Notes: generated by a model from the letters alone, not told the origin. Shown: positions 1,661 through 64,000, counted from the first letter of the stretch. The stretch: 64,000 nucleotides of DNA from an uncultured Ruminococcus sp. (GCA_902782445.1 CACZNC010000016.1:13295-77294), one strand, 5' to 3'. Numbers and translations are program-made.

Positions 1661-2476
1661 AAGGCTTCGCCTTTCGAAATCCTCATGACGGGCTCGCCCG
1701 TCGGCGGAGGAAGTTTATCCCTTCACGAAGGGAAAAAGGTATGAAAGGCTACGCCTTTCGGATTTAATGTCCCTACGCGGGACAGGCGGCAGGGGAACCA
1801 TCTCAGGCCGAAGGTTCCCCTGCGGGGTCCTTGGCCGTGTGGCATAACCTGACAGCTCGTCCCGGAATCCGAATCTGACTGTGCATCACACGGTCCTCGC
1901 GCGGTCTCTGCTCATGCAGTTGAAACATGGAGCGTTTCAATCGCGCATTGGGCACATAACGCGCCGGCGGGAAGCTGAAAAATAAACAGCATCCTCGCGC
2001 ACGGCCAGAGATTCAAACCCGCGTGCAGACCGAACGATACGATCGAAAATCTGCTCGGGCGGAACATGGAGCTGGGGTGCGCTTTGCGAATGTTTCACGT
2101 GAAACAATCGGCAGGAAAACCGCACTTTGTCCCCTTTCAATGCGCGACTGAATCACCGGCGGAGCCCGCAGGATTTATCCTGCGCATGTTTCGGCCGCAC
2201 GTTGGCGATCAAGCCGGGTTGGTTCCATGTTCAGGCTCTTTCACCCTGCAATCGGCAGAAGCGCGCGGGGATCGGTCCGCGGTCCGGCTTCACTTTGCGC
2301 GTCCGACGCCGACTCCTTTTCCAACCAAAACCCCGCATAAATCCAAGGCCAAACGAAATCCCGATCCGGACAATCCCGCGCTGCACGAAATTCTGCCCAA
2401 ATCCTCATCTTTTCCCTTTGAAAAGTATAACCTCCGGGATCTTTATCGAACGCGGAGGCTATTCATACTTCTCTCA
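1661..2476. repeat. R01 mosaic element: G(+) - parS - F(+)
   Basis: Fills the whole rnpA-rpmH spacer. Modules recognised by alignment to other copies in the window. Boundaries approximate. Confidence 0.8.
2091..2106. promoter_or_regulatory. parS: parS-type 16-mer, perfect TGTTTCACGTGAAACA
   Basis: Exact read; hub of R01. Confidence 0.65.
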
Positions 2477-2611
2477 TTAGTGGGTGAGTCTGGCACGACC
2501 CTTCGCGCGTCTTCTCTTCAGGACCTTTCTGCCGTCCGCGGTCGCCATTCTCTTTCTGAAGCCGTGCTCTTTGCTTCTCTGTCTTTTTTTAGGCTGGTAT
2601 GTTCTGAGCAT
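2477..2611 (-). CDS. rpmH: 50S ribosomal protein L34
   Basis: Own translation: [51 protein letters not shown] Shine-Dalgarno at 2618-2624. Too short for the ORF track. Confidence 0.95.
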
Positions 2612-2690
2612 GATGGGCACCTCCTTATCTTGAAACAGTTTCTTTCACGCCGAAGCAACGCTTGTTTGCCCGCGCAGATAGACAATCATA

Positions 2691-2720
2691 ATTATATATC
2701 ACCGAACCCTCGCTTGTCAA
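2691..2720 (-). promoter_or_regulatory. sigma-A-type promoter of rpmH
   Basis: Minus strand TTGACA (2715-2720), 18 nt, TATAAT (2691-2696). Confidence 0.6.
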
Positions 2721-2728
2721 GGGTTTTT

Positions 2729-3874
2729 TCAAAAATCCTCGGGCTCGGGAGGCGTTTTTTTGCTTCTTTTTTCTCCGAAGACGATGAATTTGCCCACGAG
2801 GAAGTTCATCACGGCGATGGAAGCGGCCACGACGACCTTCACAGCCGCCGACGGGAACTTCAAAAGATCCACGCCGAGCCACATGAGCCCGGTCTCCACC
2901 CCCAGGGAGAACAGCCGTCCGGCCGCGAAGAGAAGCCCCTCCCGGACCAGCCGCAGGCCCCTTGATCCCGACCGGAAAACGAAGGCCCGGTTCGCGAGGA
3001 ACGCGAAGGTCACGGAAATCACCCAGGCCGCCGTATTCGCCGCGAGGTAGTGGATCCGCCCCTCGAGGGAGAAATAGACCAGCCAGTTCACGAGGGTGGT
3101 GGTCCCGCCCCAGAAGATGTAGCTGACCACGTGCCAGAGCCGGTTGAGCAGTTCCACGAATTTCCGGGGAATCTTCGCCTTCGGCCTCCGGGCGAGGATC
3201 CAGGCGATGAAGCCCGCCACGACCTCCGGCAGCGCGCCGAGCATGGCTCCGAAGGTGTTCGCGATGAGATCGTCGGTCTCGAAGGTCCCGAGGCGGCAGA
3301 GCAGCTGGACCGCTTCGATGAGAAGACTGGCGGCGAGCCCGGCCCCGGTGACGAGCAGAAGGGTCTTCGCGCTCCCCCCGAAGATCCGGCCGACCCTGCG
3401 GATGGCTCCCCGGTCGGGTTCCCCCGCGGCCTTTTCCGGGTCCCGGACCTCTTTCAGCCCTTCGATGCCCCCCACGTCCAGCGCGCGGTCGCGGAAGGCC
3501 ATGCCGGATCCCTCCTCGGAGCGCGGCGCGAGCATCCCCGAGAGGAACATCCCGCCGGGCAGAAAGAGGAGCACGTTCATCCAGGCCGCCCGGAGGGTCT
3601 CGAAGTCGTGCCGCTCGGCGAATTTCCGGAGGAACGCGAAGGCCTCGGCCTTGATCCGCACCGTATCGCTCTCCGTGCGGAACAGCGTCATGGACAGCGC
3701 GAAAAGGACCCAGACCCCGAAGAGGGCGGCGTAGAACTTCCGGGTCTTCGCCGTCCGGGGATGCAGAAAAGCCTCCGCCCCTCTCAGGAGCAGAGCGATC
3801 GCGGCCGACAGAAGCGTCACGAGCCACGGCATTCTATATAGGAAGTGAAATAGAAGTCGAATCGGATTGGACAT
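2729..3874 (-). CDS. membrane protein, VanZ-like N-terminal region fused to a GtrA-like C-terminal domain
   Basis: 381-aa multi-TM ORF. The C-terminal ~130 aa (NWLVYFSLEGRIHYLAANTAAWVISVTFAFLANRAFVFRS...NFLVGKFIVF) resemble the GtrA family. The N-terminal half (...NVLLFLPGGMF...ETDDLIANTFGAMLG) is VanZ-like. Confidence 0.6.
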   Translation of the reverse strand: MSNPIRLLFHFLYRMPWLVTLLSAAIALLLRGAEAFLHPRTAKTRKFYAALFGVWVLFALSMTLFRTESDTVRIKAEAFAFLRKFAERHDFETLRAAWMNVLLFLPGGMFLSGMLAPRSEEGSGMAFRDRALDVGGIEGLKEVRDPEKAAGEPDRGAIRRVGRIFGGSAKTLLLVTGAGLAASLLIEAVQLLCRLGTFETDDLIANTFGAMLGALPEVVAGFIAWILARRPKAKIPRKFVELLNRLWHVVSYIFWGGTTTLVNWLVYFSLEGRIHYLAANTAAWVISVTFAFLANRAFVFRSGSRGLRLVREGLLFAAGRLFSLGVETGLMWLGVDLLKFPSAAVKVVVAASIAVMNFLVGKFIVFGEKRSKKTPPEPEDF

Positions 3875-3969
3875 GTTTAGTCGTTAGTAGGTAGTGGGTA
3901 GTTGTCGGCGAGGAGCGAGGAGTTGCTAGCGGCTAGTGGTTAGTAGCTAGTAGAACGAGAATTAGGAAT

Positions 3970-3985
3970 TGTTTCACGTGAAACA
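3970..3985. promoter_or_regulatory. parS: parS-type 16-mer, perfect TGTTTCACGTGAAACA
   Basis: Exact read; R02. Confidence 0.65.
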
Positions 3986-4208
3986 GGCGGGCCTTTTCCG
4001 TCAAATCGGCCGCCGCACGTCCCATTCCGCCTCCAGCTTGTCTTTCTGAGCGTATGTGAAGAATCTCCCAACTTCAAGGCCAACCCATTCTCCACGTGCG
4101 GAGATTCTTCGTCGCAGGCTCCTCAGAATGACAAAGAGAAGCGAAACGACGGGGGTCAGCCGCCCTGCATGAAGAATCGTTTCAGGAAAAACAGAACGAA
4201 ATCCCGAT

Positions 4209-4224
4209 TGTTTCACGTGAAACA
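4209..4224. promoter_or_regulatory. parS: parS-type 16-mer, perfect TGTTTCACGTGAAACA
   Basis: Exact read; R02. Confidence 0.65.
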
Positions 4225-4399
4225 AGGAATCATTCCTCATTCCTAATTTCACGAAAGCGTTCTACCAGCCACTAACCACTCCTCACTCCTAACTCTAATT
4301 ATACACCATTTCCTCCGATCCGGCAATACGGCGTTTGGCTGAACTTTCGGGAGATATATGAACGAAATGTCAATTGTTCATGAATAGTTTGACATTCGC

Positions 4400-5965: not shown

Positions 5966-6149
5966 CCCGGAAGATCCCGAAAAGTCAAGCCTCCGGACAT
6001 CGCCCGAAGATCCCGCGGAAGACCGGGGGTTCAAGGGAAAACGGAGGCGTTCGTTTTTTGAGGAGCGGAGATTTGAAGGATCCGTTCCCGCGGAATGATA
6101 TGCTGTACGGGATTTGAGGCTGTATGAGACGGAAAAGGAGTCGGCGGCG

Positions 6150-6382
6150 GGACGCGCGTTCGGAAAGCCGAAACTGCTCTTTCACCCTCGCGCACATATT
6201 CAGGTTCAGACAGACATGCAGCCCGAATTGAGCGATCAAAAATCCATCCGGGCGAAACCTGAAATTTTGCGGGCGAATGTTCCACGTGAAACAATTCTTA
6301 ATTCATCATTCTGAATTCTGAATTTCATTCCTAATTCCTCATTCCTCATTCACTCCTCACTCCTAACTCCTAACTCATCACT
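6150..6382. repeat. R03 mosaic element: partial G(+) - parS - arm
   Basis: Only the parS-proximal half of G (…CCTCGCGCACAT..CAG.TTCAGACAGACATGCAGCCCGAA…) is present. Confidence 0.7.
6278..6293. promoter_or_regulatory. parS: parS-type 16-mer TGTTCCACGTGAAACA (canonical B. subtilis-type site)
   Basis: Exact read; R03. Confidence 0.65.
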
Positions 6383-6401
6383 CCCCAAAGGATTCCTTTT
6401 C

Positions 6402-7886: not shown

Positions 7887-8072
7887 AGTCCGGAGCGAGG
7901 AAGGAGTTGCCAGCGGAAAGTGGCTGGTGGTCAGCAGGACAGTCAGCCGGGGATGATTGTGCGGCGAGAGGATTTTGTTTCACGTGAAACAATTCTTAAT
8001 TCATCATTCTGAATTCTGAATTTCATTCCTCATTCCTCATTTTGTCCACTCCTAACTCCTCACTCCTAACTC
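7887..8072. repeat. R04 minimal element: arm - parS - arm
   Basis: Between the LCP stop and the sigma-gene promoter. Confidence 0.75.
7976..7991. promoter_or_regulatory. parS: parS-type 16-mer, perfect TGTTTCACGTGAAACA
   Basis: Exact read; R04. Confidence 0.65.
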
Positions 8073-8152
8073 CCAATATTAAATTTTTCCCTCCCGCTTT
8101 TTCAAACGATTTATCTTCATAATCTTTTCATTTTCATCCTCTGCAAATCCCG

Positions 8153-8182
8153 TTGACATTCCCTCTCCGTCTGTGATATAAT
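8153..8182 (+). promoter_or_regulatory. sigma-A-type promoter of the ECF sigma gene
   Basis: TTGACA (8153-8158), 18 nt, TGaTATAAT (-10 at 8177-8182). Confidence 0.6.
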
Positions 8183-8261: not shown

Positions 8262-8972
8262 ATGCTCTTTCTCTTTCTCTCATCGTTCGCGGGCCCGCCC
8301 GATCCGGGAGGCGAAGCCCGGGATTTCCGTCTTCCCGAGGACCTCGCGCCCTCCCCCGACGGCGGAAAGACCCTCGGCGAACCGGAGATCCTCGCCCTGG
8401 CCGAACAGGCCAAAAACGGGGACGAGGACGCCTTCGCCCAGATCGTGTCCCAGTTCGAGCGCTTCGTCTACAACGTCGCCTGCCGGATCCTCGTCTCCAG
8501 CGGGCAGACCCAGGATCTCGCGGAGGACGTGGCTCAGGAGACCTTCCTCAAGGCCTGGCGCAGCCTCCCGAAATTCCGCGGGGACTGCACCTTCTCCACG
8601 TGGCTGTTCCGCATCGCCGCCAACTGCGCGAAGGACGCCGTCCGATCCGCCGCCCGCCACCCGGTCTCGTCCCTCTCCTTCGCCGGGGAGGAAGAGGAGG
8701 ACGGACAGGCGGAATGGGACATCCCCGTCACCTCCGGCGATACCGTCCCCGAGGACGCCGCGGAGCGCAGGGAACTGATCCTCGCCGTGCGGAGGGCCGT
8801 CGAATCCCTCCCCGAGGACCAGCGGCAGGTCGTCGTCATGCGCGATCTCTACGGCCTGCCCTATCAGGAAATCAGCGATACCCTGGGGGTCGAACTGGGC
8901 ACCGTCAAGTCCCGCCTCAGCCGCGGCCGCAATAATTTGAAAACAATTCTTGAAAACGGGAACTTTTTCTGA
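8262..8972 (+). CDS. RNA polymerase sigma factor, sigma-70/ECF group
   Basis: Region 2 (FVYNVACRIL...AEDVAQETFLKAW) and region 4 (LPEDQRQVVVMRDLYGLPYQEISDTLGVELGTVKSRLSRGR). Preceded by a sigma-A-type promoter and followed by a hairpin terminator. The exact start is uncertain. Confidence 0.85.
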   Translation: MLFLFLSSFAGPPDPGGEARDFRLPEDLAPSPDGGKTLGEPEILALAEQAKNGDEDAFAQIVSQFERFVYNVACRILVSSGQTQDLAEDVAQETFLKAWRSLPKFRGDCTFSTWLFRIAANCAKDAVRSAARHPVSSLSFAGEEEEDGQAEWDIPVTSGDTVPEDAAERRELILAVRRAVESLPEDQRQVVVMRDLYGLPYQEISDTLGVELGTVKSRLSRGRNNLKTILENGNFF

Positions 8973-8973
8973 G

Positions 8974-9008
8974 TCTCCGGCGTCTAATATAAGGATGCCG
9001 GAGATTTT
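8974..9008 (+). terminator. intrinsic terminator after the ECF sigma gene
   Basis: TCTCCGGC, 15-nt loop, GCCGGAGA, then TTTT. Confidence 0.55.
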
Positions 9009-9015
9009 GCATTTT

Positions 9016-9572
9016 CATCCCTTCACGAAGGGAAATAAGGAATGAAACGCTCCGCGTTTCGGATTTAATGTCCCTACGCCGCGTCGACGCAGTCACGCAG
9101 ACGGGCAGCCGGGAGGGACCATCTCAGGCCGACGAGTGTTGCTTCGCAAACTCTGCCCCTCCCGAGGGTCCAATTTGCGGAGCAAATAGTTGGCCGTATG
9201 GCATAACCTTACCGCTCGTCCCGGAATCAAAATTCAATCTTGCATCCCACGTCCCCGCGCGGTCTCTGTTCGTGCAGCCGAAACATGCGCAGACAATGTC
9301 TGACGCACCGACGCAGTCGTGCTGGCCTCCGGCGGAGATTCAGGCGCGCATTGGGCACAGGACGCGCATCGCTGAATCGAAACCTGTTTCCGCATCCTCG
9401 CGCACATGCTCAGATTCAGACAGACATGCAGCCCGAACCGCGCGAACGAAAACCGTCCGGGCGAAACATGAAGTTTTGTCTGCGATTGTTCCACGTGAAA
9501 CAATTCTGAATTCATCATTCTGAATTCTGAATTTCATTCCTCATTCTACTAACCACTAGCCGCTAACTACTA
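9016..9572. repeat. R05 mosaic element: G(+) - parS - arm
   Basis: Separates the ECF sigma gene from the candidate anti-sigma ORF. Confidence 0.8.
9487..9502. promoter_or_regulatory. parS: parS-type 16-mer TGTTCCACGTGAAACA
   Basis: Exact read; R05. Confidence 0.65.
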
Positions 9573-9613
9573 TCTTCTTCCCTCGCAATCATCAACTCTC
9601 GAAAGGCTCTGCC

Positions 9614-10990
9614 ATGAACGATAACGAACACCTGCCCGATCTTCTGTCGGACGACGATCTCGCGCGGCTGGTCTCGCTGGTCCGGTCCGCCTATCCCGCT
9701 CCGCCGGACGGATTCGGCGAGGCCGTGATGAAGAAGATCCGGGACGAAAACCGGGCCCTGACCCAGCCCCAGCCGGACGCGAAGATCCTCCCCGCGGCGG
9801 ATTCCCGGAAAACGAAGAGATTCTTCGGCCCCATCCTCCGGTTCGGAGCCGCGGCAGCCTGCATCCTCTTCGTCGGAGCCGTCGCCGTGCGGATCCTTCC
9901 GACCTTCACCCGCGACCTCGCCGCCGACAAAGCCGCCCCCGCCGAAGCATCCGCCTCCGAAGCCGCCTTCGACATGGAGGCCGACGAAGCGGTCCCCGAA
10001 TCTTTTGCGGACGCCATGATCCCCGCGGAAGCCGCCGAAAATGCTGCCGGAAATATAGAATTCACGGCTAAGCCGACCGAAACCCTGGCTGATAGCCCGG
10101 CTGCCCCCGAAATGCCCGCCCCCGATCCGGGATACGACGGCAAACTCTCCGCACAGGACGCGCCCGAAGCCGTATTCGAAGCCGCCGCGGTCCCCGAAGC
10201 AGAGGCCGCGGAAGAATCCGAAACGCTCTACGGGTCATGGGAATACGCGGCGGAGGACGGAGCGTTCCCCGAAGAATCCCTCATGGCCGCGGGGCTTTCG
10301 GGATTCGGCGAAGAGGACGGCATGAGCCTCAGACTCTTCAACCTGAACGGACTCGAAGAAGAGGCGGGAGAGGCGAAGCGCATGACCTCCTCCGCGGAGA
10401 ACAGCGGCGCAAGTCTGGCCCCGGACAATGCCCCCTTCTACTACTACGTGCGGACGGAGTGCGCCCATTCTTCCGCCTTCCGCAACTCCTACCACGACAT
10501 CCCGGACGTCCTGATCGCGAAGGCCGGAGCGGACGAATTCGGCGCCTGGGCGTCGGAAGTCCAGAGGGAAGACCTCTGCGGCGTGAACATCCTGAGCTTC
10601 GCCCTGCGCTTCGGGCTGACGGCGGAGGAAATCCTCTCCACCGGCGACGTGTGGTACTACCTCGACCTGCCCGAAGATCTCGCCCTGACGGAGGAGAACG
10701 CCGCGGCCGTCGAAGCCTACTACCGGAACGGCGGAGACCCCGGCAAGATGGCTGAGCGGTATCTTGTCTACGAATGGAAGACCGCCGTGATCCGCGAAAT
10801 CGGCCTGGACTCCTATCTCGCCTGGCGCGGCCCCGAAACCGCCCTCCGCAGCTGGACCCTCGAAGAGGCCGCGGAACACTTCAACCTGTCCGACAGCACG
10901 ATGGAAAAGCTCTACCTCTCCGCCAAAGACGCGGTGATGAAGATCCTCCCCGACGCGGAAGTGCCGGAGAGAGGCGATGTAAAGGAGTGA
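9614..10990 (+). CDS. membrane protein, candidate anti-sigma factor (by position and topology only)
   Basis: 458-aa ORF with a cytoplasmic N-terminus, one TM (FFGPILRFGAAAACILFVGAVAV) and an acidic extracytoplasmic region. It lies downstream of the ECF sigma gene. No recognisable zinc-finger anti-sigma motif. Confidence 0.45.
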   Translation: MNDNEHLPDLLSDDDLARLVSLVRSAYPAPPDGFGEAVMKKIRDENRALTQPQPDAKILPAADSRKTKRFFGPILRFGAAAACILFVGAVAVRILPTFTRDLAADKAAPAEASASEAAFDMEADEAVPESFADAMIPAEAAENAAGNIEFTAKPTETLADSPAAPEMPAPDPGYDGKLSAQDAPEAVFEAAAVPEAEAAEESETLYGSWEYAAEDGAFPEESLMAAGLSGFGEEDGMSLRLFNLNGLEEEAGEAKRMTSSAENSGASLAPDNAPFYYYVRTECAHSSAFRNSYHDIPDVLIAKAGADEFGAWASEVQREDLCGVNILSFALRFGLTAEEILSTGDVWYYLDLPEDLALTEENAAAVEAYYRNGGDPGKMAERYLVYEWKTAVIREIGLDSYLAWRGPETALRSWTLEEAAEHFNLSDSTMEKLYLSAKDAVMKILPDAEVPERGDVKE

Positions 10991-11071
10991 GAAGTGGTTA
11001 GCGGTTAGTGGCTAGCAGAACGAAATGAGGAATTAAGAGTAATTCAGAATTCAGAATTATGAATGATGAAT

Positions 11072-11087
11072 TGTTTCACGTGAAACA
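11072..11087. promoter_or_regulatory. parS: parS-type 16-mer, perfect TGTTTCACGTGAAACA
   Basis: Exact read; R06. Confidence 0.65.
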
Positions 11088-11092
11088 AAACG

Positions 11093-11140
11093 CCGTCAGA
11101 GAAGAACTTTCGGGTTCGACCCTGACGGTTTTTGATTTTG
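11093..11140 (+). terminator. terminator-like hairpin inside repeat module I
   Basis: CCGTCAG...CTGACGG followed by TTTTTGATTTT. Lies between two parS sites after the plus-strand ORF ending at 10990. Confidence 0.55.
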
Positions 11141-11182
11141 TGAGACGATGCTAAAATCTGCGTGTCCTTCACGAAAACGGAA

Positions 11183-11198
11183 TGTTTCACGTGAAACA
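11183..11198. promoter_or_regulatory. parS: parS-type 16-mer, perfect TGTTTCACGTGAAACA
   Basis: Exact read; R06. Confidence 0.65.
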
Positions 11199-11498
11199 GT
11201 GCGGGAAAACGACCGGGGAAAGCCCCCTTTTCCATGCGCGCCTGAATCTCCGCCGCAAGGCCGCAGGATTTATCCTGCGCACGGGTTCGACTGCACGCCG
11301 GAGACCGCGCGGGGTTGGCCTCATGTTCCGGCTCGTTCAATCTGCAATCTGCAAGAGCGCGCGGGGACGCAGTTCATTCATCAGCCAAAAGAACGCGCGT
11401 CCCATCCATTCCAGCGGAAGCGCTCCCATCTAAAAACCCAAACACCTCCGCCGAACTCCACCCCGCCGCGGACCTCCAAACGGATAAACCCGAAAAAC

Positions 11499-13550: not shown

Positions 13551-14179
13551 AACGAGTTAGGAGTGGCTTGGTTAGTAGCTAGCGGCTAGTGGCTAGTAGC
13601 TAGTAGACCGCCCTCGTGAAATTAGGAATGAGGAATGAAATTCAGAATTCAGAATTATGAATTAAGAATTGTTTCACGTGAAACATTTGCCCGCCGAAAC
13701 TCCATGTTTCGCCCGGACGGTTTTCGATCGCGCGGTTCGGGCTGCATGTCGATCTGAATCTGAGTATGTGCGCGAGGACAAAGAAACAGTTTTTGCTTCC
13801 CGTCCGCGCGTCCTGTGCCCAATGCGCGCCTGAATCTCCGCCGGAGGCCAGCACGACTGCGTCGGTGCGTCAGACTTTGTCTGCGCACCACTCCAACTGC
13901 ACGAACAAAGACCGCGCGAGGACCGTGGGATGCAAGATCGAATTTCGAATACGGAACGAGCGGTAAGTTTATGCCATACGGCCAAGGACCCGCAGGGGGG
14001 ACTTCGGCCTGAGATGTTCCCCCTGCCGCCCGTCTGCGTGACTGCGTCGACGCGGCGTAGGGACATAAATCCGAAACGCGTAGCGTTTCATTCCTTATTT
14101 ACCTTCGATGAAGGTATGCTTTTCTCCGCCGACGGTCAAGAATGACCGTCGTTGCTGATTTCGTAAAGCGGAGCTTTGC
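13551..14179. repeat. R07 mosaic element: arm - parS - G(-)
   Basis: Between the tig stop and the clpP upstream region. Confidence 0.8.
13670..13685. promoter_or_regulatory. parS: parS-type 16-mer, perfect TGTTTCACGTGAAACA
   Basis: Exact read; R07. Confidence 0.65.
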
Positions 14180-49128: not shown

Positions 49129-49431
49129 TCACCCCAACCGCCCAGACTCTGTCCCCTTTCCATGCGCGCCTGAATCACCGCCGTGAGGCCACGGGACTTG
49201 TCCCGTGCATGTTTCAGTTGCACGAACACAGACCGCGCGGGGAGAACGCCATGTTCCGCCCGTCATGTCTGAATCGGCGGAAGTGCGCGGGGACCGCATC
49301 CTGTTCCGGCTTCCCGTCCGCGCGTCCTGTGCCCACTCCTTTTCCCTCAAATAAAACCGCCATCTTTCCGCCGCGCTCAACCCCGATGCGGAACCACCTC
49401 CGCGCTCGGCCCATACAGAGAATACAAACCT

Positions 49432-51384: not shown

Positions 51385-51469
51385 GAGGATAAAAGAATTT
51401 GAACGGGGAAGGAAGGAAGAAAATTAGATAAATTATTAGCGGGATATTAGTGAAATTCACATGATAGGA

Positions 51470-53401: not shown

Positions 53402-53832
53402 GAAAAAGTCCTTTCGTTATATTCGGAGAGTGCCGTATAGGAATATTATAGCGGAAAAATCGGCTGAATGTGTGGATTTTTTGTAACAATGAGCGGGAGG
53501 AGGGAGGATCTGCGGCGGGATGACGTGCGGGGCTTTCGTTTTATTTGATGGGAGCGCTTCGGTCCGGTTCGGGATGACGTGCGGTGCAGGATTATCGGTT
53601 TTTATATGGGAGCGCTTCGCTGGGATGGAAGGGGACGCGCGTTTCTGTATCGAAAAACGGTTCACTGTCTTCGCGCGCTTTTGAAGATTGCGGACGGAAC
53701 GAGCCGGAACATGGAGCCAACCCGGCTTGATCGCCGAAGTACGGTTGAACCCGTGCGCAGAACAAGTTCTGCGGCCTCCGGCAGAGATTCAGGCGCGCAT
53801 GTAAAGGGGACAATGTGCGGAGGAAGACGTGA

Positions 53833-53848
53833 TGTTTCACGTGAAACA
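53833..53848. promoter_or_regulatory. parS: parS-type 16-mer, perfect TGTTTCACGTGAAACA
   Basis: Exact read; R27. Confidence 0.65.
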
Positions 53849-54132
53849 ATCGTGATTTCGTTCTGTTTCTCCCGAAACGATTCTTCATTCCGTGCGGCTG
53901 ACCCCGTCGTTTCGCTTCTCTTTGTCATTCTGAGGAGCCTGCGACGAAGAATCTCCGCACGTGGAGGATGGGTTGGCCCTGAAGCTGGGAGATTCTTCAC
54001 TGATAGCACGACTGCGTCGGTGCGCACGACTGCGTTGGTGCGTCAGAATGACAAGCTGGGGGCGGGATGGGACGTGCAGCGGCAGATTTGACGGAAAAAG
54101 CCTGCGGAAATTCCGACGCACGAAAACCATTC

Positions 54133-54148
54133 TGTTTCACGTGAAACA
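54133..54148. promoter_or_regulatory. parS: parS-type 16-mer, perfect TGTTTCACGTGAAACA
   Basis: Exact read; R27. Confidence 0.65.
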
Positions 54149-54193
54149 AAAAACCCCGCCCGGGCGGACGAAAAATCCACCCCGGACGGTCGA

Positions 54194-54209
54194 AGTTTCA
54201 CGTGAAACA
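54194..54209. promoter_or_regulatory. parS: parS-like variant AGTTTCACGTGAAACA (1 mismatch)
   Basis: Exact read; R27. Confidence 0.5.
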
Positions 54210-54309
54210 ATTCTTAATTCATCATTCTGAATTCTGAATTTTTAACTCATTCCTCCCTCCTCATTCCTAATTCCCAACGGTTCTACTAACCACTAGCCGC
54301 TAACCACTT

Positions 54310-57120
54310 TTATCTCCTGGCTACTCTTACGATTCCGCAAGTAATATCGTCCTTCCTGCCTCTCTGCGCGGCCTCTCCGACTACCGCGGCGGCGGCGGAT
54401 CTTTCGTCTCCGCGCAGGATCCCTTCGTCGGAGGAGAGGAGGTCCAATAGCCACGGATCCTCGTCGTAGGATCGCGCGGCTCCGTCCGACACCATGACGA
54501 CCGTATCGCCTGCCCGCACGTCGAAACGGATCATTTCGGCGTCCAGCGCGCGCAGTATCCCGACAGGGACGGTTTTCGACTGCAGGCGGAATATACTGCC
54601 GTCCCGGAGGACGAAGGACGGAGCCGCGCCGCTCTTCACGAACCGCGCTTCTCCCGTGTAAAGGTCGATCTCCGCGACGTCCACAGTGGCCGAGCACTCC
54701 CTCCCCGTCGCCCGGAGGACCCGGTTCAGGATCCTGAGGGCTGTTTCCGTCCCGGCCCCGGCGGTGATGAGGCGTTCCAGCAGGGAGACTGCCATCCCGG
54801 CGGAGAGCGCGGCCTCCCTTCCGCTGCCCATGCCGTCGGAGAGGATCATGTACTGTTTTCCCCCGGCCTCGAAATCCGTGATGACGTCCCCCGAGATCTC
54901 CCCGGGCTCTTCGTCCGTGAGGGTGACGCGGGGCTTTTCCCCGGAGGCTTCCGTTTCTGTTTCTCCCGTTTTTTCCGGATCCGGTTCACCGGAGTCTGCA
55001 CCGCAGCCGCGTGATTCGCACCAGTACTTATGTACGCTCGATGCCGCGCATGAAAAGGAGCCGGTTTTGCAGGAGAAGACGGAGACGGAGCGCATCCGCA
55101 TCCAGACGGTGGGGCCGTCGATTTCGAATTCGGGGGCGGATAAGGGCTGGCGGACGGAGCTCTCGAACAGTCGCCGGATGTCGTCCGCGCCCATCCGGGT
55201 GGAGAGCAGATCCACCCCGCCCACGAGGATCCTTCTCTCCCGGGACCCCCAGACCCGCACGGACTCCGCGCCGAATCCGCTCTGGGACAGGAGGCGCCGC
55301 AGCTTCTTTTCCGCGTCTGGATCCTCCCGGAAGGCGTCCCTGCCGGACCGGGCGGCGGAGGAGAGCAGTTCCCCGGCCAGTTCCCAGTCCGAGGCGGCGG
55401 AGGAGAGGGGGTCTTCCCGTCCGGGGGAGACGAGCTTTTCCCCGGCCTCCCGGTTCACGTCGTCGAGGATCCCGCCCATCTCGGGGCAGCGGGAGGCGAG
55501 GGAGGGGGGGATCAGGGCGGAGGACACGGATCCCCGGCGGGCGAGGGAGTCCGTCATGGCGCGGATGAGGGGCTCGGTCCGGGAGAGGCGTTTCCGGCGG
55601 CATTCCTCCCGTCCGGAACAGCGGGAACAGCGGTTCTCGAAACACCGTTCCACCGCGGCCCTCAGTTCCGCCGGCGCGGGCTTCGAGAGGCGGGAAGCCA
55701 GTCCCCGGAGCAGGGCCGAGACGGAGAGCAGCCCTTCCGAGAGGGAATCCACCCGGTTTTCGGTGCGTCCCGCCCGGATCTCGGTCCCGTAGGCGTCCCC
55801 CGTCCGTCCGAAGCGGGCCGTCCCCGCCGGATTTTCGGAGAGGCCGAAGAGATCCCGGGGGGTTTTCAAAAGATCCCCGCGGAACAGGGGCACGAGGACC
55901 GCGCAGGTCACCGCCGCCGGGGGGAGGACCCGCGTGAACCCGTCCACCCCGCCCGTGAAGATCCCCCAGGCCACGGAGACCACCCCCGCCCCCACAACAG
56001 GGAAGACGGAGGGCAGCCGCAGCGCGTCGAGAAGGGCGTAAGCGGCCGCGGAAAGGGGGTACATAGGCGCAAGCACGGGAACGGTGACGACCCCGCAGCA
56101 GAGACCCGCCAGCGCGCCCCTGTGCCATCCGTGGTCCCGGGCCAGCAGGAGGGAGGCGGAGAGGGTGAAGAACGCCCCGACGTCGAAGAGCGTCTTCCGC
56201 CTCAGTACCGCCCCCTCCCCCGTGAGAGCCTCGATCGTCCCCGACGCCCTCAGAGGCAGGGCGAAGAGGGAGGAGGAGATCTCCGTCAGAGCCATGGCCG
56301 TCACCGCCAGCACGGCGAGGACCCCGAACTCCCGGAAGAAGGAGACGCGCATATTCCGCTCCGACGCCGCATAGAACAGATATGTAAAGAGGGGCGTCAC
56401 CAGAACGGAGAAAACAGCACCGAACAGGTCCACGGTTTCATACCCGCCCGCCACGACCGACCATGCTCCGGCGAACAGTGCTGCGCAGGCGGAAAGCGCC
56501 ATGCGGATCCGAATATGCTCCCGGAGCACGGTCCCGACGTTCATCTTCCCCGACCCGGGGACATCTCCTCCCTGGGTCACGGCGAGTGGGGAGCGGGAGG
56601 GATCGGTCGCGGCGGGGGCGGAATACCGGGACTGCCTGCCCTCGTCCGCCTCATCCAGCAGAAGGGAGATAAACCGCCGGAGTTTCGGCAGAAGTGTGGA
56701 GAAGAGCGGTCCGCCGTCCTCCGGTTTCCCGCGGGATCTCGGGCGGGACGAGGATTCGGCGAGCCAGCGGGACAGGACGAGCCGGAGCACGAAGAGGGAG
56801 GCGAACGCGAGGGCGTAGACCCCCCCGACCGCCGGGATGCGCGCGGATCCGACGAGGGACCCGAGGGTGACGGACACCGCGGAGAGGACGCCCCCCGCCG
56901 ACGCCGCCAGCGCGATGCCGAAGGGATAGGTCCCGGGGAAGGCGCGGGTCCCTGCGAAGAGGAGGGCGGCGAAGAAGCAGAGGAGGGCGAGGGCGATCCG
57001 CTTCCCCCGGACGGCGTTTTTCGCCGAAGCGCGGAGGGGGATCTTCGCGGCGCCGCCCCTGCCTTCACCGGCCCGATCCGCTTTCCCCGCGGCGTTTTTC
57101 GTTTTGATGCGTTCCTGCAT
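54310..57120 (-). CDS. spoIIE: stage II sporulation protein E (PP2C phosphatase with a polytopic N-terminus)
   Basis: 936 aa. About 10 TM segments, then a PP2C domain ISGDVITDFEAGGKQYMILSDGMGSGREAA...VKSGAAPSFVLRDG...VVMVSDG. Confidence 0.9.
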   Translation of the reverse strand: MQERIKTKNAAGKADRAGEGRGGAAKIPLRASAKNAVRGKRIALALLCFFAALLFAGTRAFPGTYPFGIALAASAGGVLSAVSVTLGSLVGSARIPAVGGVYALAFASLFVLRLVLSRWLAESSSRPRSRGKPEDGGPLFSTLLPKLRRFISLLLDEADEGRQSRYSAPAATDPSRSPLAVTQGGDVPGSGKMNVGTVLREHIRIRMALSACAALFAGAWSVVAGGYETVDLFGAVFSVLVTPLFTYLFYAASERNMRVSFFREFGVLAVLAVTAMALTEISSSLFALPLRASGTIEALTGEGAVLRRKTLFDVGAFFTLSASLLLARDHGWHRGALAGLCCGVVTVPVLAPMYPLSAAAYALLDALRLPSVFPVVGAGVVSVAWGIFTGGVDGFTRVLPPAAVTCAVLVPLFRGDLLKTPRDLFGLSENPAGTARFGRTGDAYGTEIRAGRTENRVDSLSEGLLSVSALLRGLASRLSKPAPAELRAAVERCFENRCSRCSGREECRRKRLSRTEPLIRAMTDSLARRGSVSSALIPPSLASRCPEMGGILDDVNREAGEKLVSPGREDPLSSAASDWELAGELLSSAARSGRDAFREDPDAEKKLRRLLSQSGFGAESVRVWGSRERRILVGGVDLLSTRMGADDIRRLFESSVRQPLSAPEFEIDGPTVWMRMRSVSVFSCKTGSFSCAASSVHKYWCESRGCGADSGEPDPEKTGETETEASGEKPRVTLTDEEPGEISGDVITDFEAGGKQYMILSDGMGSGREAALSAGMAVSLLERLITAGAGTETALRILNRVLRATGRECSATVDVAEIDLYTGEARFVKSGAAPSFVLRDGSIFRLQSKTVPVGILRALDAEMIRFDVRAGDTVVMVSDGAARSYDEDPWLLDLLSSDEGILRGDERSAAAAVVGEAAQRGRKDDITCGIVRVARR

Positions 57121-57440
57121 GACGGATTTGGAAGACCTCCGATTCAGACGTTGAGGGACGGAGAGTCCGCTTTGATCCGTTTTCCCGGCTGATGCGCACT
57201 CGCCGGGGGAGGGATCTCCGTCCGTGCCCCGATTATACAGGTCCGCCCCGGCGAAACCGGTCGCACCGCGCGGGGGGAAGGAGGTCGGAAAACCGCCGAA
57301 AGGAACGGGGAACCCCGACGCGCCCCGGACCGTCCCATTTCCGGGAAGAATCGGAACGATGCGTGCGGGGGAATGGAAGAGGGAATAGGAGTTGGGAGCG
57401 GGTAGTGGTTAGTGGCTAGTAGACGAGTGAGGAGTGATTA

Positions 57441-57456
57441 TGTTTCACGTGAAACA
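57441..57456. promoter_or_regulatory. parS: parS-type 16-mer, perfect TGTTTCACGTGAAACA
   Basis: Exact read; R28. Confidence 0.65.
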
Positions 57457-57661
57457 ATCGTGGTTTCGTTCTGCTTTTCCTGAAACGATTCTTCATTCAG
57501 GCCGGAAACCCGTCCGTCGCCGCTTTACTGTGTCATTCTGAGGAGCCTGCGACGAAGAATCTCCGCACGTGGAGGCCTTGAAGCTGGGAGATTCTTCGCT
57601 CCGCTCAGAATGACAACGTGGAGGCGGAATGGAACGTGCATCTGCCGAAATTTCAGATGCA

Positions 57662-57677
57662 TGTTTCACGTGAAACA
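57662..57677. promoter_or_regulatory. parS: parS-type 16-mer, perfect TGTTTCACGTGAAACA
   Basis: Exact read; R28. Confidence 0.65.
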
Positions 57678-57997
57678 TTATCCCGATCACCCGCACTCTG
57701 TCCCTTTTCAATGCGCGCCTGAATCACTGCATGTTTCAGCCATCCGAACACAGACCGCGCGAGGTTGACGCCATGTTTCGCTCGTCATTCCTGAATCTGT
57801 CAAAGCACGCGAAGATGCGGAACCGGTTTTCGATGCAAGCCCGCGCGCCCGACGCCGACTCCTTTTCCCTCAAATCACCCCGAAAATCCCCCGCAAAACT
57901 CCCCCCGGCTCCCCACTCCTCACTATTCCCCCTCCCCCCAAAAAAATCTCCGGCCATACCCTCAACGGAGTACGGCCGGACGGTCGGATCTTCTTTT

Positions 57998-58879: not shown

Positions 58880-59384
58880 TTAGTTGTTAGTTGGAAGTGG
58901 CTAGTGGCTAGTAGAGCGAAGAGGGAAGAGGGAATTCAGAATTCAGAATGAAGAATTGTTTCACGTGAAACATCCGCCGCCAAAACTCTATGTTTCGCCC
59001 GGACAGATTTTCGATCCCGCGGTTCAGCCTGCACGCGGATCTGAATCTGAATATGTGCGCGAGGACGGAGAAACAGTTTCAGCTTTCCATCCGCGCGTCC
59101 CATGTAATGCGCGCCTGAATCTCCGCCGTAAGGCCGCAGGACTTGTCCTGCGCATGTTTCGGCTGCACGAGCAGAGACCGCGCGAGGACGTGGGATGCAC
59201 AGTCGATTTTCGATTCAGGGACGAGCTGTAAGTTTATGCCATACGGCCAAGGGACCCGCACAGGGGGCCTTCGGCCTGAGATGGTCCCCCGTGCCGCCGT
59301 CCCGCGCAGGGACATAAATATACCGGTCGACGCAGTCACCGGGACCGTCGTTGCTGATTTCGAAAGGCGGAGTCTTTCGTTCGC
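58880..59384. repeat. R29 mosaic element: arm - parS - G(-)
   Basis: Between the hydrolase start and the oxidoreductase stop. Confidence 0.8.
58957..58972. promoter_or_regulatory. parS: parS-type 16-mer, perfect TGTTTCACGTGAAACA
   Basis: Exact read; R29. Confidence 0.65.
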
Positions 59385-60469: not shown

Positions 60470-60485
60470 TGTTTCACGTGAAACG
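60470..60485. promoter_or_regulatory. parS: parS-like variant TGTTTCACGTGAAACG (1 mismatch), solo site
   Basis: Exact read. Lies 30 bp upstream of the oxidoreductase ATG, with no arms. Confidence 0.5.
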
Positions 60486-61029: not shown

Positions 61030-61135
61030 GGAATTGGGAGGCCGTCGGCCGGGAGGTTCCGTACAGCGGCGGGCAGATTGTTTCACGTGAAACAAACGCA
61101 AATTCTGCATTCTTAATTCTTAATTCTGAATTCCC
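61013..61135. repeat. R30 minimal element: arm - parS - arm
   Basis: Overlaps the stop of the zinc-ribbon ORF. Confidence 0.75.
61079..61094. promoter_or_regulatory. parS: parS-type 16-mer, perfect TGTTTCACGTGAAACA
   Basis: Exact read; R30. Confidence 0.65.
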
Positions 61136-61179
61136 TCGCGTTCTCCCTTCTCCCTTGACTTCCCGGCCGAAATTCCCTC

Positions 61180-61332: not shown

Positions 61333-61392
61333 CCGCAGGTTTTGCGGGCGGGCCGGGTTTGAATTCAGAATTCAGAATGATGAATTAAGAAT

Positions 61393-61408
61393 TGTTTCAC
61401 GTGAAACA
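61393..61408. promoter_or_regulatory. parS: parS-type 16-mer, perfect TGTTTCACGTGAAACA
   Basis: Exact read; R31. Confidence 0.65.
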
Positions 61409-61628
61409 TTTTTCCGAAATTCCAGCCGCCGCACGTCCCGTTTCGCTTCCAGCTTGTCATTCTGACGCACCGACACAGTCGTGCGCACCAACGCAGTTGT
61501 GCTGTCAGCGAAGAATCTCCCAACATCAAGGCCAACCCATCCTCCGCGTGCGGAGATTCTTCGTCGCAGGCTCCTCAGAATGACAAAGAGAAGCGAAACG
61601 ATGGGGGTCAGCCGTCCGAAATCACGAT

Positions 61629-61644
61629 TGTTTCACGTGAAACA
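61629..61644. promoter_or_regulatory. parS: parS-type 16-mer, perfect TGTTTCACGTGAAACA
   Basis: Exact read; R31. Confidence 0.65.
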
Positions 61645-61706
61645 ACGGAGAACGGTTCTACTAACCACTAGCCACTGACCGCTAGCTACTCCTCACTCCT
61701 CACTCC

Positions 61707-63698
61707 TCATTCCTCATTCCTCATTTCCCCGAAGTAGTCCAGCAAAAACCAGTCCAGCCTTCCGGCGCCGGAGCCGTTGGGCTGCCAGGGGGTGAACCAG
61801 GGGTCGACGGAGGAATAGCGCTCCGAGACGATGTACTCCGGGGTGATGTTGTACCGGAGGATCCCCCGGAGGTACGCTTCGGCCTTTTCGGTCTCCCCCC
61901 GCTTCTTCCACGCCTCGATCCAGCAGATCTCCGACACCCCCGTGTAGTAGACGTTCCCGTAGAGACCGGGGGAGCCGCAGTCGTCGTTCGTCATCCGGCT
62001 CGAGAGGCCGTGGACGTCGTCAAGCATCCCGATCTCCCGGTAGAAGGTCTCCATCTGCCCGAAGATCTCAGAACAGGGATCCATGAACCTGAGCTTGACG
62101 AGATAAGGCGCGCCGTCGGTGGAAAAGCAGTGGTTGTAGCTCTCCTCGAAGGGGGTGCCGAGGATGTGGGGCATGTTGTAGGACCGCTCCCCCCGGTGCT
62201 CTTTGGCGAACCCGTCGAGAACGGACTGCACGACCAACCGGTAGTCCTCGTAAATCTCCCGCACCCGCCCGGCCTCGGGATCCCCGAATTTCTCGAAGGC
62301 CTCCGCCATCCAGCCGATCCCGTATACGTTCACCGCGTCCGTATAGGTCCAGTGCTGACCGATCTCGCCCCAGTCGCTGGCCTTCCCGGAGGTGAAGAGG
62401 CCCTTCACTTCGCCCGGCGCGGCCTTCGCGGGATCCCGCCGGTTTTCGATGTACCCGAGGGCGAGAAGCATCGGCTCCCGGAATTCCTCGAACAGTCCGC
62501 GGTCCCCGACGGTCAGGAGGTGGTACCCCATCCCCCAGAGAGCCGAGCCGTTGGCGTTGTCCCACTTCACGTAGGGATCGGCGAAAAGTCCCCGCTCCGG
62601 GTCGTCCTCCCCCGTCTTCTGCCAGCAGCGGATCCACATCCGGTAGGCGTCCGTCACGTACTCCGAAAGCCCGACCCGGTCGAGGAGGGTGAGATAGTGG
62701 GCCGCCTCCCAGATCCAGATAAACCGCCCCACGTCCCCCTGCCGGGAGTAGACCGCCCCGGGATCCGCGCATTTCTCGTACCGCTGGAGCATCTGCATAC
62801 ACACCGAAATATTGTGCCGGAAGAGATCTTCGAGCCCCGGCGCCCGCGGCAGGACTTTCACCTTCGCCTGGATCCCCTGCCAGTACGCGAGGCAGATCCG
62901 GTATGCTTCCTCATAATCCGGGATCTCATGCTCGTCGGCGAGGGGATCCGACCGCCGAATCACGAAGGTCAGGGACGCCGTTTCCCCCGGTCCCAGCCGG
63001 TAATCGAAGCGGAAATAGTCGTGGGCCCGGAAGCGGTTCTTCTGCTCCTCCCGGGACACCCAGCGGACCTTCCCGCCCTCCCGGTCCAGCAGGCAGACCC
63101 ACCCGTACCCGCTCTCGGACGTACAGACCTGAGAAACGCCGTCGACGGGCGGGATGGGGGAGTCCGAAACGGGCGCGAACCTGTTTTTCCAGGAGAGATA
63201 CCACTGCCCCACGTTCGGATTGTAGGGCTCGTACCCCGTGTCGTGGAGCCCCGTGAGATAGTGGTCCAGGGCGTTGTACCGCGGAAGGATCCCGGCAGTC
63301 CCCGAGACCGCCCAGGCGTTCGGATTCCGGATCTCGAGGCGGCAGTACGTCAGCGGCTCGTGTTTTGCTTCCGGCTTCCCGTCCCGGTCCGGGTCTACCG
63401 AGAAGGCGGACATGCGGAGGGAGCACCCGTTCTCCCCGTCCTCGTTGTTCAGCGCGTACATCGGGATCCCGCCCGAGGGCTTGTCCCATTCGGTCTTTTC
63501 CATATCGCAGTCCCCGGGCTCGGAGCCGAAGATCAGATGGACGCCGAATCCGGGTTGGTTGTAGTGCCGTCCCTGATCCCCCAGGTCCAGATCGGTGATC
63601 TTCATGTCCGGGTAAATCGAGACCAGCCGCCGCGCCCCCGAAGGATGCAGATACGCGCGGGAAGTCTTCGGACTCTGCCAGAGAGGGATTTGTTTCAT
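61707..63698 (-). CDS. hypothetical protein, possibly (alpha/alpha)6-barrel glycoside-hydrolase-like
   Basis: 663-aa ORF with coding-like composition. The functional guess rests only on Trp/Tyr/Gly-rich helical repeats in the C-terminal half. The C-terminal EMRNEE* is encoded by a repeat arm. Confidence 0.5.
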   Translation of the reverse strand: MKQIPLWQSPKTSRAYLHPSGARRLVSIYPDMKITDLDLGDQGRHYNQPGFGVHLIFGSEPGDCDMEKTEWDKPSGGIPMYALNNEDGENGCSLRMSAFSVDPDRDGKPEAKHEPLTYCRLEIRNPNAWAVSGTAGILPRYNALDHYLTGLHDTGYEPYNPNVGQWYLSWKNRFAPVSDSPIPPVDGVSQVCTSESGYGWVCLLDREGGKVRWVSREEQKNRFRAHDYFRFDYRLGPGETASLTFVIRRSDPLADEHEIPDYEEAYRICLAYWQGIQAKVKVLPRAPGLEDLFRHNISVCMQMLQRYEKCADPGAVYSRQGDVGRFIWIWEAAHYLTLLDRVGLSEYVTDAYRMWIRCWQKTGEDDPERGLFADPYVKWDNANGSALWGMGYHLLTVGDRGLFEEFREPMLLALGYIENRRDPAKAAPGEVKGLFTSGKASDWGEIGQHWTYTDAVNVYGIGWMAEAFEKFGDPEAGRVREIYEDYRLVVQSVLDGFAKEHRGERSYNMPHILGTPFEESYNHCFSTDGAPYLVKLRFMDPCSEIFGQMETFYREIGMLDDVHGLSSRMTNDDCGSPGLYGNVYYTGVSEICWIEAWKKRGETEKAEAYLRGILRYNITPEYIVSERYSSVDPWFTPWQPNGSGAGRLDWFLLDYFGEMRNEE

Positions 63699-63764
63699 CG
63701 GATAATCCTCCGTTCGGTGGGATAGGTGGATGGGCTTAGTATAGCATAAGGAGAGAGAAAATTC

Positions 63765-64000
63765 AAGGAGGAGTTGGGAGCGGTCAGCGGCTAGCGGCTA
63801 GTAGAACGAATGGAAAATCACCGCATAGGGACGTGGGTGCGGGATTTTTGTTTTTTTATATGGGAGCGCTTCGCTGGGATGGAAGGGACGCGCGGTTCTA
63901 AAGCTGAAACAGGGAGCGATCTTCGCGGGCTGTTTCAGATTGCAGACTGAACGAGCCGGAACATGGAGACAACCTCGCTTGATCGCCGGTCGTGTAGTCG
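63765..64000. repeat. R32 partial element: arm fragment - F(-), truncated by the window edge
   Basis: …TTTTTTTATATGGGAGCGCTTCGCTGGGATGGAAGGGACGCGCGG… matches the F distal end. The hub is presumably beyond 64000. Confidence 0.7.

Follow-up and report, generated by a model that had tools for sequence, protein, structure and literature searches.

The 64,000-nucleotide stretch of DNA analysed here (GCA_902782445.1, CACZNC010000016.1:13295-77294; hereafter the window) is the dnaA-dnaN-gyrB-gyrA / rpmH-rnpA-yidC region of a chromosome with a GC content of ~60%, as identified by Pfam scans of open reading frames (ORFs) with coding-type GC at third codon positions (GC3). Its host is an uncultured, Oscillospiraceae-like member of the rumen Clostridia, and the named DnaA homologues come from metagenome-assembled genomes (MAGs) of uncultured Clostridia, Ruminococcaceae or Eubacteriales. 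In most spacers of this dnaA-containing segment, composites of repeat modules built around parS, the chromosomal centromere site, sit between the stop codon or terminator of one gene and the promoter, ribosome-binding site (RBS) or start codon of the next. The best-supported reading is that parS has been multiplied about ten-fold or more in the origin-containing part of the chromosome. The carriers are probably small non-coding elements in intergenic DNA, forming a nested and lineage-specific family, resembling foldback elements or MITEs (transposable elements of the miniature inverted-repeat kind), with a functional parS core.

parS hubs around dnaA

Intergenic DNA makes up 21 kb, or 33%, of the window, and the spacers are unusually long (mostly 375-2667 bp). 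An earlier note, made from the sequence of the window, had described a parS-hub mosaic filling nearly every intergenic region, and the counts agree: 49 sites lie within one mismatch of TGTTTCACGTGAAACA, against 0.01 expected from dinucleotide shuffles, and 29 of the 32 spacers hold at least one of these hubs. Perfect copies of TGTTTCACGTGAAACA, the identical 16-mer that several published papers use as parS, account for 36 hubs; 40 match the chromosomal parS consensus TGTTNCACGTGAAACA, and the others have one mismatch. All hubs are outside gene calls except the one at 2091, which falls within an unsupported, mechanically called ORF.

By its sequence, each hub is a canonical parS. Hubs are much better conserved than their flanks: they diverge from the consensus by 1.7% per site, and the commonest base in the adjoining 20-nt flank blocks reaches only 50-87% of copies. 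When 195 hubs from the window and other loci were pooled, 35 of their 51 mismatches affected either the outermost base or the N of TGTTNCACGTGAAACA, where 25% would be expected (binomial P = 7e-11); the constraint on the hub mirrors the specificity of ParB, with mismatches at positions that the ParB consensus tolerates. A gene for a canonical Spo0J-type ParB (TIGR00180, 138.7 bits against a cut-off of 58.45; motifs GERRFRAA and ENIQREDLNP) was found at 2860-3531 on the minus strand of contig L100, which was assigned to the same species by shared repeats, GC content and sample, and which also bears hubs and a copy of module G (see below). ParB would be expected to load at all hubs, which would make the region a single, very large zone of ParB loading.

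The hubs extend beyond the window. To the left they carry on past yidC, jag and mnmE, and a scan of one metagenome for a hub joined to an arm or to the left end of module E returned 74 stretches. Its low-GC matches were ordinary single parS sites in unrelated organisms and so are no evidence of wider occurrence. About 46 loci outside the window (285 kb, ~60% GC) carry hubs at 0.1-1.2 per kb, beside genes such as tgt, uvrB, pyk, alr, thrC, PBP, GH31/95/127, ABC transporters and a P-type ATPase. In all, there are at least 208 distinct hub loci: those of the window near dnaA, dnaN, gyrBA and rnpA-yidC, and ~160 more on contigs without chromosomal placement. Hubs occupy 29/32 spacers in the window and 95/144 elsewhere, though the latter contigs were chosen for having a hub. 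Because the region equivalent to the window contributed about a quarter of the pattern matches in one sample, we estimate the hub territory at ~0.3-0.6 Mb, densest around dnaA; this estimate comes from one metagenome, and a genome-wide distribution is possible. A contig classed as viral, L086 (identical to L110; IMG/VR UViG_3300032007_003916), which encodes a terminase large subunit, an SPP1-type portal and a LexA/CI-like S24 repressor, bears a hub-E-hub unit and another hub (at 2753, 2982 and 4600); the repeat family has therefore entered prophage-like DNA.

A chromosome normally has few parS sites, and these are treated as fixed landmarks near the origin. Within the retrieved passages of the review PMC7022226, the largest number is 22, in Myxococcus xanthus. 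The 208 or more hub loci would be roughly ten times that number, and hubs amount to about one for each gene.

Arms, modules and their placement

The basic unit is arm'-parS-arm, of about 150-230 bp, a discrete foldback with inverted arms and parS at its centre. The arms, which had been noted as low-complexity and inverted, have a 7-bp period (autocorrelation of 0.55 at lag 7 and 0.44 at lag 14, background ~0.27). On the strand that runs outward from the hub, G accounts for only 9% of their bases, and their repeat unit grades from the hub outward through ATTCTGA, ATTCCTC, ACTCCTA and ACTAGCC. Their outer terminus, ...CTTCCAACTA(A/G)CAACTAA (also written ...CTTCCAACTAACAACTAA; TTAGTTGYTAGTTGGAAG...), occurs at 41 places and is followed each time by unique DNA, often with an RBS and ATG 5-25 nt beyond. 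Since this terminus is defined, arm'-hub-arm is an element in its own right. A hub-less foldback of the same family, in which two inverted arm outer ends enclose a centre other than parS, may be an ancestor or relative of that unit.

Read outward on both sides of each hub, the 98 hub sides consist of low-complexity arms, F, G, either end of E or of I, and a few unique flanks: an arm may be replaced by module F (~300 bp) or the hairpin-rich module G (~450 bp), and modules E and I lie between two hubs. Joining through a hub, as the earlier note had it, is the rule, since modules E, F, G and I share a spacer with a hub in 102 of 105 module-bearing spacers and are hub-less in only three. Alignment, which that note had named as the test of its grouping by eye, confirmed that the modules are homologous. 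Self-BLASTN found 14.3 kb of the window to be repeated, 14.0 kb of it intergenic, so the earlier hand tally of ~17 kb was of the right order. The modules contain no supported ORFs, and the units are non-coding, multi-copy and 150-1000 bp long.

The copy numbers and sizes given for the modules in that note proved essentially right. Module F was recovered at the size and with the fixed hub-facing end described before, in 15-16 copies of ~270-300 bp and not the 17 tallied. It starts at a fixed distance from the hub, ~21 nt of linker (in three variants) leading into TGTCCCC (TGTCCCCTTTCCATGCGCGCCTGAATC). Module G has the seven full or near-full copies of ~450 bp that were expected, and more partial ones than the single one noted. 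From the hub outward it comprises a 130-bp proximal block, an F-like core and a distal part of short hairpins. The core has the same outward orientation as in F; the claim that the block shared by F and G is inverted arose from reading left-of-hub copies on the plus strand and does not hold. Some hairpins of G show compensatory changes (e.g., GAAACGC-GTA-GCGTTTC and GAAAGGC-GTA-GCCTTTC), and optional extra hairpins occur in some copies. RNAalifold on 30 copies of G gave weak global support (covariation term -1.29). At gathering and permissive thresholds Rfam matched no RNA family to the modules, the G, F and E regions giving chance-level matches only, at E-values up to 5; at the gathering threshold it found only two tRNAs in the window. 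A role for G as a cis-regulatory RNA or RNA gene was dropped in view of the weak global structure and an orientation that is not fixed (3 upstream sense, 5 convergent). Given that the orientation of G and F relative to genes varies, that support for RNA structure is weak and that Rfam is empty, the hairpins are more likely relevant as DNA, or are relics of mobility.

Modules E and I conform to the earlier description. All 13 copies of E (164-352 bp, 11 in one orientation) are arranged hub-E-hub; E is a long imperfect palindrome, GTCATTCTGAGGAGCCTGCGACGAAGAATCTCC ... GGAGATTCTTCG ... TCAGAATGAC. Both copies of the 95-bp I (11088-11182 and 17593-17687) are hub-I-hub, and I carries a terminator-like hairpin and is placed between convergent genes. 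The E between hubs 36808 and 37176 is 352 bp long, against 164-284 bp elsewhere; its ~100 bp of extra internal sequence (36930-37080) is partly missing in strain contig L059. Hubs 54133 and 54194 (54133-54209) are 45 nt apart, with a GC-rich hairpin, CCGCCCGGGCGG, between them; this shortest inter-hub module is kept in strain L001.

This arrangement bears on a rival account, in which the palindrome is kept because an enzyme that mobilises the elements themselves recognises, cleaves or targets it, such as a hub-targeting recombinase or transposase or a protein with a ParB-like domain. E and I would then insert at the hub centre, regenerating two hubs, and ParB binding would be incidental or exploited. 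IS110/Piv-type enzymes do target dRS3 or REP palindromes. E and I always lie within two complete hubs, strains differ by exactly one E plus one hub, and F and G each join the hub at a fixed distance, the hub forming one terminus of all side types. Deletion between direct repeats of 16 bp explains the difference between hub-E-hub and a lone hub equally well, however, and no gene for such an enzyme was found in ~0.45 Mb. The hub mismatches, moreover, follow the tolerance of ParB, although a ParB-like domain would give the same spectrum. We consider this account unlikely.

Arms adjoin 16 gene 5' ends and 10 3' ends, and F adjoins six 5' ends and nine 3' ends; both ends are used by both, and no strict rule ties module type to the 5' or 3' end of a gene. 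A promoter and terminator scan showed no enrichment within modules, and native promoters lie outside the composites. A second rival takes the hubs as operators of a global ParB transcription network for which the repeats were retained, as with KorB and its OB sites in plasmid RK2. It would account for a hub in 29 of 32 spacers, many of them ~100-250 bp upstream of native promoters, and ParB affects transcription in some species according to passages of PMC7022226. Convergent gene pairs, operon junctions and 3' ends have hubs just as often, however, and the distance of hubs to promoters is not fixed, which makes this account very improbable in our view.

Insertion, strain variation and possible mobility

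The syntenic relative L002 (a JGI contig; DnaA ~61% identical in amino acids, coding regions 73-90% identical in nucleotides) agrees with the window in its genes and their order throughout 21.7 kb; its spacers measure 4-408 bp, and it has only two parS sites and none of the modules. Its two parS sites match hubs 60470 and 40602 of the window in intergenic position, and its parS density is ~1 per 10 kb, compared with ~1 per 1.3 kb (~0.77 per kb) in the window. Where the GFO/S9 junction of L002 reads TGA TACGGCC ATG (7 bp), the window has a 523-bp composite of G, hub and arm; where the junction of dnaN and the next gene reads TGA CGGC ATG, the window has a 226-bp arm'-hub-arm; and where gyrA and the next gene overlap or are adjacent, the window has ~1 kb of F'-hub-E-hub-F. 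Because the spacers of this relative are so compact and free of modules, the composites are lineage-specific insertions. A second relative, 'Oscillospiraceae bacterium SIG615' (84.5% nucleotide identity in clpXP), carries G-like cores at the matching clpP-tig and clpX-flanking positions and no hub in 16 kb; these hub-less cores indicate that the F/G family is older than its association with parS. In a scan of representative genomes for the F-core pattern, SIG615 gave the only true match, and the 23 others were single chance matches.

Presence or absence of individual copies, for which a comparison of strains had been proposed, was seen in E and G among strain-level contigs that are 94-99% identical to the window. 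A unit of E plus one hub varies in both directions: 53849-54148 of the window is missing in L001, and a hub-E of L001 (~300 bp, 9441-9742) is missing at hub 51545 of the window. Most of one G (~9070-9485) is missing in L039. Blocks of heptamer repeats of 26-40 bp also vary, two of them directly adjoining a hub, and the hub-proximal first 13-35 nt of F switch between linker variants. In every strain polymorphism the hub is retained. These differences fit deletion between the 16-bp hubs, arm slippage and gene conversion between spacers; none proves new transposition.

The linker switch belongs among the evidence for a rival without mobile machinery, in which parS sites are brought together by ParB bridging and, as palindromes, break or stall forks; frequent ectopic gene conversion and switching of templates would then copy hub-adjacent sequence between spacers, and the mosaic would reflect concerted evolution around recombination hot spots. 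F linker types 1 and 2 occur at one locus in two strains, where local divergence is far above the 94-97% background; conservation peaks beside the hub for arms and for the left end of E; and the parS shared with L002 in the pfkB/gyrA spacer (40602) now carries G and an arm. Gene conversion needs homology on both sides, however, so a first hub cannot enter a unique 4-7 bp operon junction in this way; a defined arm terminus followed by unique DNA is the mark of insertion; and, with the gene order of L002 preserved, crossovers between one hub and another must be rare. We hold this account to be decidedly unlikely.

Artefacts of short-read metagenome assembly, or chimeras, deserve next to no credence. 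Highly repetitive metagenome scaffolds are known for mis-assembly, but the same composites recur at 94-100% identity and in the same gene context in JGI 3300032007, ENA ERZ28613020 and ERZ27280336, NCBI JAEEGL01 metagenome contigs and three NCBI MAGs. Exact DnaA and YidD are encoded on ENA rumen scaffolds of 74.8 kb (ERZ28613020, STEW19-1 scaffold_280) and 61 kb (ERZ27280336, k141_426927), which span dozens of copies, and exact YidD is also present in the three MAGs. Recurrence in assemblies from different samples thus answers the doubt about assembly that the earlier note had raised.

The family of MITE-like elements with a parS core remains the reading we favour. The arm'-hub-arm units have terminal inverted repeats and a defined terminus, and the elements differ in presence at orthologous sites, being absent in L002 and, for E and G, polymorphic between strains. 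They would have spread in trans by an enzyme encoded outside the window. Their terminus, CAAC-TA, suggests that they may insert at TA in the manner of IS630/Tc1-type MITEs; as a lead, TA targeting in a host genome with 85% GC3 would confine insertions to stop codons and A/T-rich intergenic sites. Once established, the 16-bp hubs may act as recombination points, hub-hub deletion removing E, and gene conversion between spacers may swap hub-adjacent segments. The hubs would be kept perfect by selection for ParB binding, or by a tolerance of only intact parS sites near the origin.

Several points weigh against this reading. In line with the earlier statement that the window has no transposase or recombinase gene, Pfam scans found none in 39 of its ORFs or in ~40 further ORFs from other contigs. 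An autonomous partner, for which a search had been suggested, was likewise not found, either in the window or across ~0.4 Mb of contigs assigned to the same species. Comparison of filled sites with the empty sites of L002 gave no clear target-site duplication; CAAC-TA / TA-GTTG is compatible with duplication of TA, yet TA is palindromic and within the inverted repeat. The outer ends of arm'-hub-F and arm'-hub-G units are dissimilar, which a classical terminal-inverted-repeat element does not explain. All strain polymorphisms could be losses through hub-hub deletion or slippage and not new insertions, ParB binding at the hubs is predicted from their sequence, and hubs may extend beyond the origin-proximal part of the chromosome, the hub territory being estimated, at only ~0.3-0.6 Mb, from one metagenome.

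The heterotypic units and the fact that F and G invariably have a hub at one end, which a simple MITE does not explain, leave room for recombination or insertion specific to the hub. It is possible, though doubtful, that the host's centromere site now does the work in a DNA family that moves or recombines, with ParB-parS or a ParB-like enzyme guiding the insertion and exchange of modules at hubs, or with the family co-opted as a 'mega-centromere'. In a mega-centromere, ParB would have hundreds of loading sites throughout the origin domain, one for every intergenic gap, which would change the working of ParB clamps, SMC loading and origin segregation in the host.

Genes of the window and comparison with known systems

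The composites, the two plain parS sites and the principal genes are collected in Table 1. Further genes identified by Pfam are clpX-clpP, tig, mreB-mreC, maf and zapA.

Table 1. Positions of parS composites, plain parS sites and genes in the window (numbers in parentheses are hub positions)
Feature	Coordinates	Strand	Remarks
G'-hub(2091-2106)-F	1661-2440		splits rpmH from rnpA
arm'-hub(3970)-E(3986-4208, minority orientation)-hub(4209)-arm	3875-4300		between divergent genes
partial G'-hub(6278, TGTTCCAC variant)-arm	6148-6385		arm reaches RBS of lytR-family gene
arm variant'-hub(7976)-arm	7890-8075		native promoter 8153-8182 outside element
G'-hub(9487, TGTTCCAC variant)-arm	8966-9585		most of G missing in strain contig L039
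arm'-hub(11072)-I(11088-11182)-hub(11183)-F	10979-11474		abuts clpX 3' end
arm'-hub(13670)-G	13560-14177		between clpP and tig; G-like core without hub here in SIG615
arm'-hub(17577)-I-hub(17688)-F	17492-17998		
F'-hub(20392)-E-hub(20646)-F	20138-20889		
arm'-hub(22292)-short E (164 bp)-hub(22472, CACATG variant)-arm variant	22214-22555		
arm'-hub(23696)-E-hub(23945)-arm	23566-24041		
arm'-hub(24800)-E-hub(25024, CACTTG variant)-arm variant	24698-25132		
F'-hub(26310)-short arm	26063-26378		between mreC and mreB
G' (~100 extra nt beside hub)-hub(27982)-arm	27420-28058		between mreB and maf
inverted pair of arm outer ends	28674-28782		non-parS centre; hub-less foldback of same family
plain parS TGTTTCACGTGAAACG	29822-29837		without modules
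minimal arm'-hub(32304)-arm	32213-32365		between U32 peptidase gene and zapA
arm'-hub(33207)-E-hub(33439)-arm	33122-33539		
hub(35329, GTGGAACA variant)-arm	35327-35409		adjoins tRNA-Ser
short arm'-hub(35728)-arm	35683-35832		canonical outer terminus ...GGCAACTAA
F'-hub(36808)-E with extra insert (352 bp)-hub(37176)-F	36540-37456		~1 kb; L002 genes overlapping or adjacent here
G'-hub(40602)-arm	40113-40682		same pfkB/gyrA spacer as parS of L002 (L002 17916)
F'-hub(41864)-G	41600-42349		
arm'-hub(44684, CACGTA variant)-E-hub(44932)-arm	44631-45031		
arm'-hub(45365)-arm	45258-45483		226 bp exactly from dnaN stop to next start
F'-hub(47152)-E-hub(47382)-F	46843-47675		dnaN-dnaA interval
F variant'-hub(48837)-E-hub(49113)-F	48522-49363		abuts dnaA 3' end
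arm'-hub(51545)-F	51466-51829		between terminator of upstream gene and conserved dnaA promoter; extra hub-E in L001
F'-hub(53833)-E-hub(54133)-45 nt-hub(54194)-arm	53525-54318		E + one hub (299 bp) missing in L001
arm'-hub(57441)-E-hub(57662)-F	57387-57875		
arm'-hub(58957)-G	58880-59381		523-bp spacer; 7-bp operon junction in L002
plain parS TGTTTCACGTGAAACG	60470-60485		without modules; same position as parS of L002 (L002 2819)
arm variant'-hub(61079)-short arm	61067-61138		upstream of tRNA-Met promoter
arm'-hub(61393)-E (minority orientation)-hub(61629)-arm	61360-61712		
start of further F-type module	63830-64000		cut by window end
yidC	3-803	minus	Pfam
rnpA	1169-1660	minus	Pfam
yidD	near rnpA/yidC	minus	Pfam
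rpmH	~2480-2617	minus	read by eye
gyrA	37466-40084		Pfam
gyrB	42363-44630		Pfam
dnaN	45484-46764		Pfam
dnaA	49432-51309		Pfam

The gene order has features of its own. The rpmH-rnpA-yidD-yidC cluster (1-2617) shares the strand of dnaA and follows it 47 kb downstream, whereas in most Firmicutes it diverges from dnaA. On contig L105, mnmG, rsmG and parAB do not adjoin mnmE, parB being on the separate contig L100. The dnaN-dnaA interval (46765-49431) is 2.7 kb long and contains, besides two composites, a 185-amino-acid ORF (47882-48439, minus strand) without a family match; a gene of 178 amino acids occupies the equivalent place in L002. The Jag/R3H protein encoded downstream of yidC is unusually long, at 873-885 amino acids (L039 10200-12821; L105 11524-14181), and its recognised domains are an N-terminal Jag_N and R3H only.

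A family of ~500-amino-acid lipoproteins (signal peptide ...LAGCSE) is expanded, with at least six paralogues in ~0.4 Mb (window 51905-53401, minus strand; L045 1911-3623; L046 1359-2888; L048 7821-9293; L058 866-2383; L080 259-1776), one of them directly upstream of dnaA, in the relative L002 too. It has no Pfam or NCBIfam match; a solute-binding role is our guess. Multi-copy proteins were considered as candidate transposases, and this was the only expanded family. A separate short hairpin repeat, GGTTCTTTTCTCCTCGATAAAGGAGAAAAGAACC with its flanks, is found at 15560-15646 and 35232-35281 of the window and at 1759-1876 and 8028-8137 of L002; it is unrelated to the parS family and sits in one of the few hub-free spacers.

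For work on ParB and SMC, the region offers a natural experiment on how CTP-dependent loading and sliding of ParB, the loading of condensin and the folding of the origin domain respond to a loading site in each intergenic gap. For mobile-DNA biology, it presents a small non-coding element that carries or targets the host's centromere site, and raises the question of whether selection confines it near the origin. Origin-finding and parS-based annotation tools would be misled by it, and its repeats fragment short-read assemblies.

The earlier note knew of no described repeat family built around parS; full-text literature searches likewise returned no report of parS embedded in one. As far as architecture goes, its comparison with BIME/REP and Correia-type elements is sound. 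In Neisseria, Correia elements (CREE) are small, palindromic, MITE-type, intergenic and often co-transcribed, insert at TA and, in their long forms, carry a central site for integration host factor (IHF). They share with the present family palindromic intergenic elements with a central site for a host protein, and CAAC-TA would be compatible with a similar insertion at TA; the central site is that of IHF there and parS here, there is no sequence similarity, and the long graded arms of 7-bp repeats, the mosaic arm, F and G sides and the modules between duplicated hubs are features of the present family only. BIME/REP elements, especially BIME-1 (RIP/RIB) of E. coli, are mosaics of alternating palindromes with a host IHF site between them, found in transcribed intergenic DNA, at 3' ends and in operons, and REPs, the repeated palindromes there, owe their mobility to RAYT (TnpA-REP) transposases. 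The two are alike in architecture only: in the present family parS is the palindrome that stays invariant, modules have ten times the length, no GTAG-head REP-like palindrome (~35 bp) was found as a unit, and the scanned ORFs include no RAYT/Y1 transposase.

Closer in grammar are the NIME of Neisseria, 50-150 bp modules bounded by the 20-bp inverted repeat dRS3, which serves as a junction and as a recombination or integration site. Modules are joined through a short palindrome in both; the junction here is parS and not dRS3, ATTCCC(N8)GGGAAT, and dRS3 is genome-wide, is no centromere site and has no equivalent of the arms, F or G. An integron or Xer (dif) type is not indicated, with no attC or 28-bp XerC/D junction at the hubs (a 16-bp perfect palindrome instead) and no integrase in the scanned ORFs. 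Eukaryotic foldback (FB) elements have long inverted arms of short tandem repeats whose unit grades from the outer end to the centre, and offer an analogy only, being eukaryotic, kilobase-scale and without a site for a centromere protein.

Palindromic sites for a ParB-family protein in many intergenic regions are known from plasmid RK2, where KorB has twelve OB sites with a demonstrated regulatory role; those are plasmid sites outside repeats, whereas the present ones are chromosomal and within repeats. Multiple parS sites around the origin serve one ParB in Streptomyces and Myxococcus xanthus (22 sites), according to passages of PMC7022226. Such natural clusters number about twenty sites, mostly in genes or unique DNA, and involve no repeat family; here at least 200 stand on repeats, at ~0.77 per kb. 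What is new is parS as the central site of such a mosaic repeat family.

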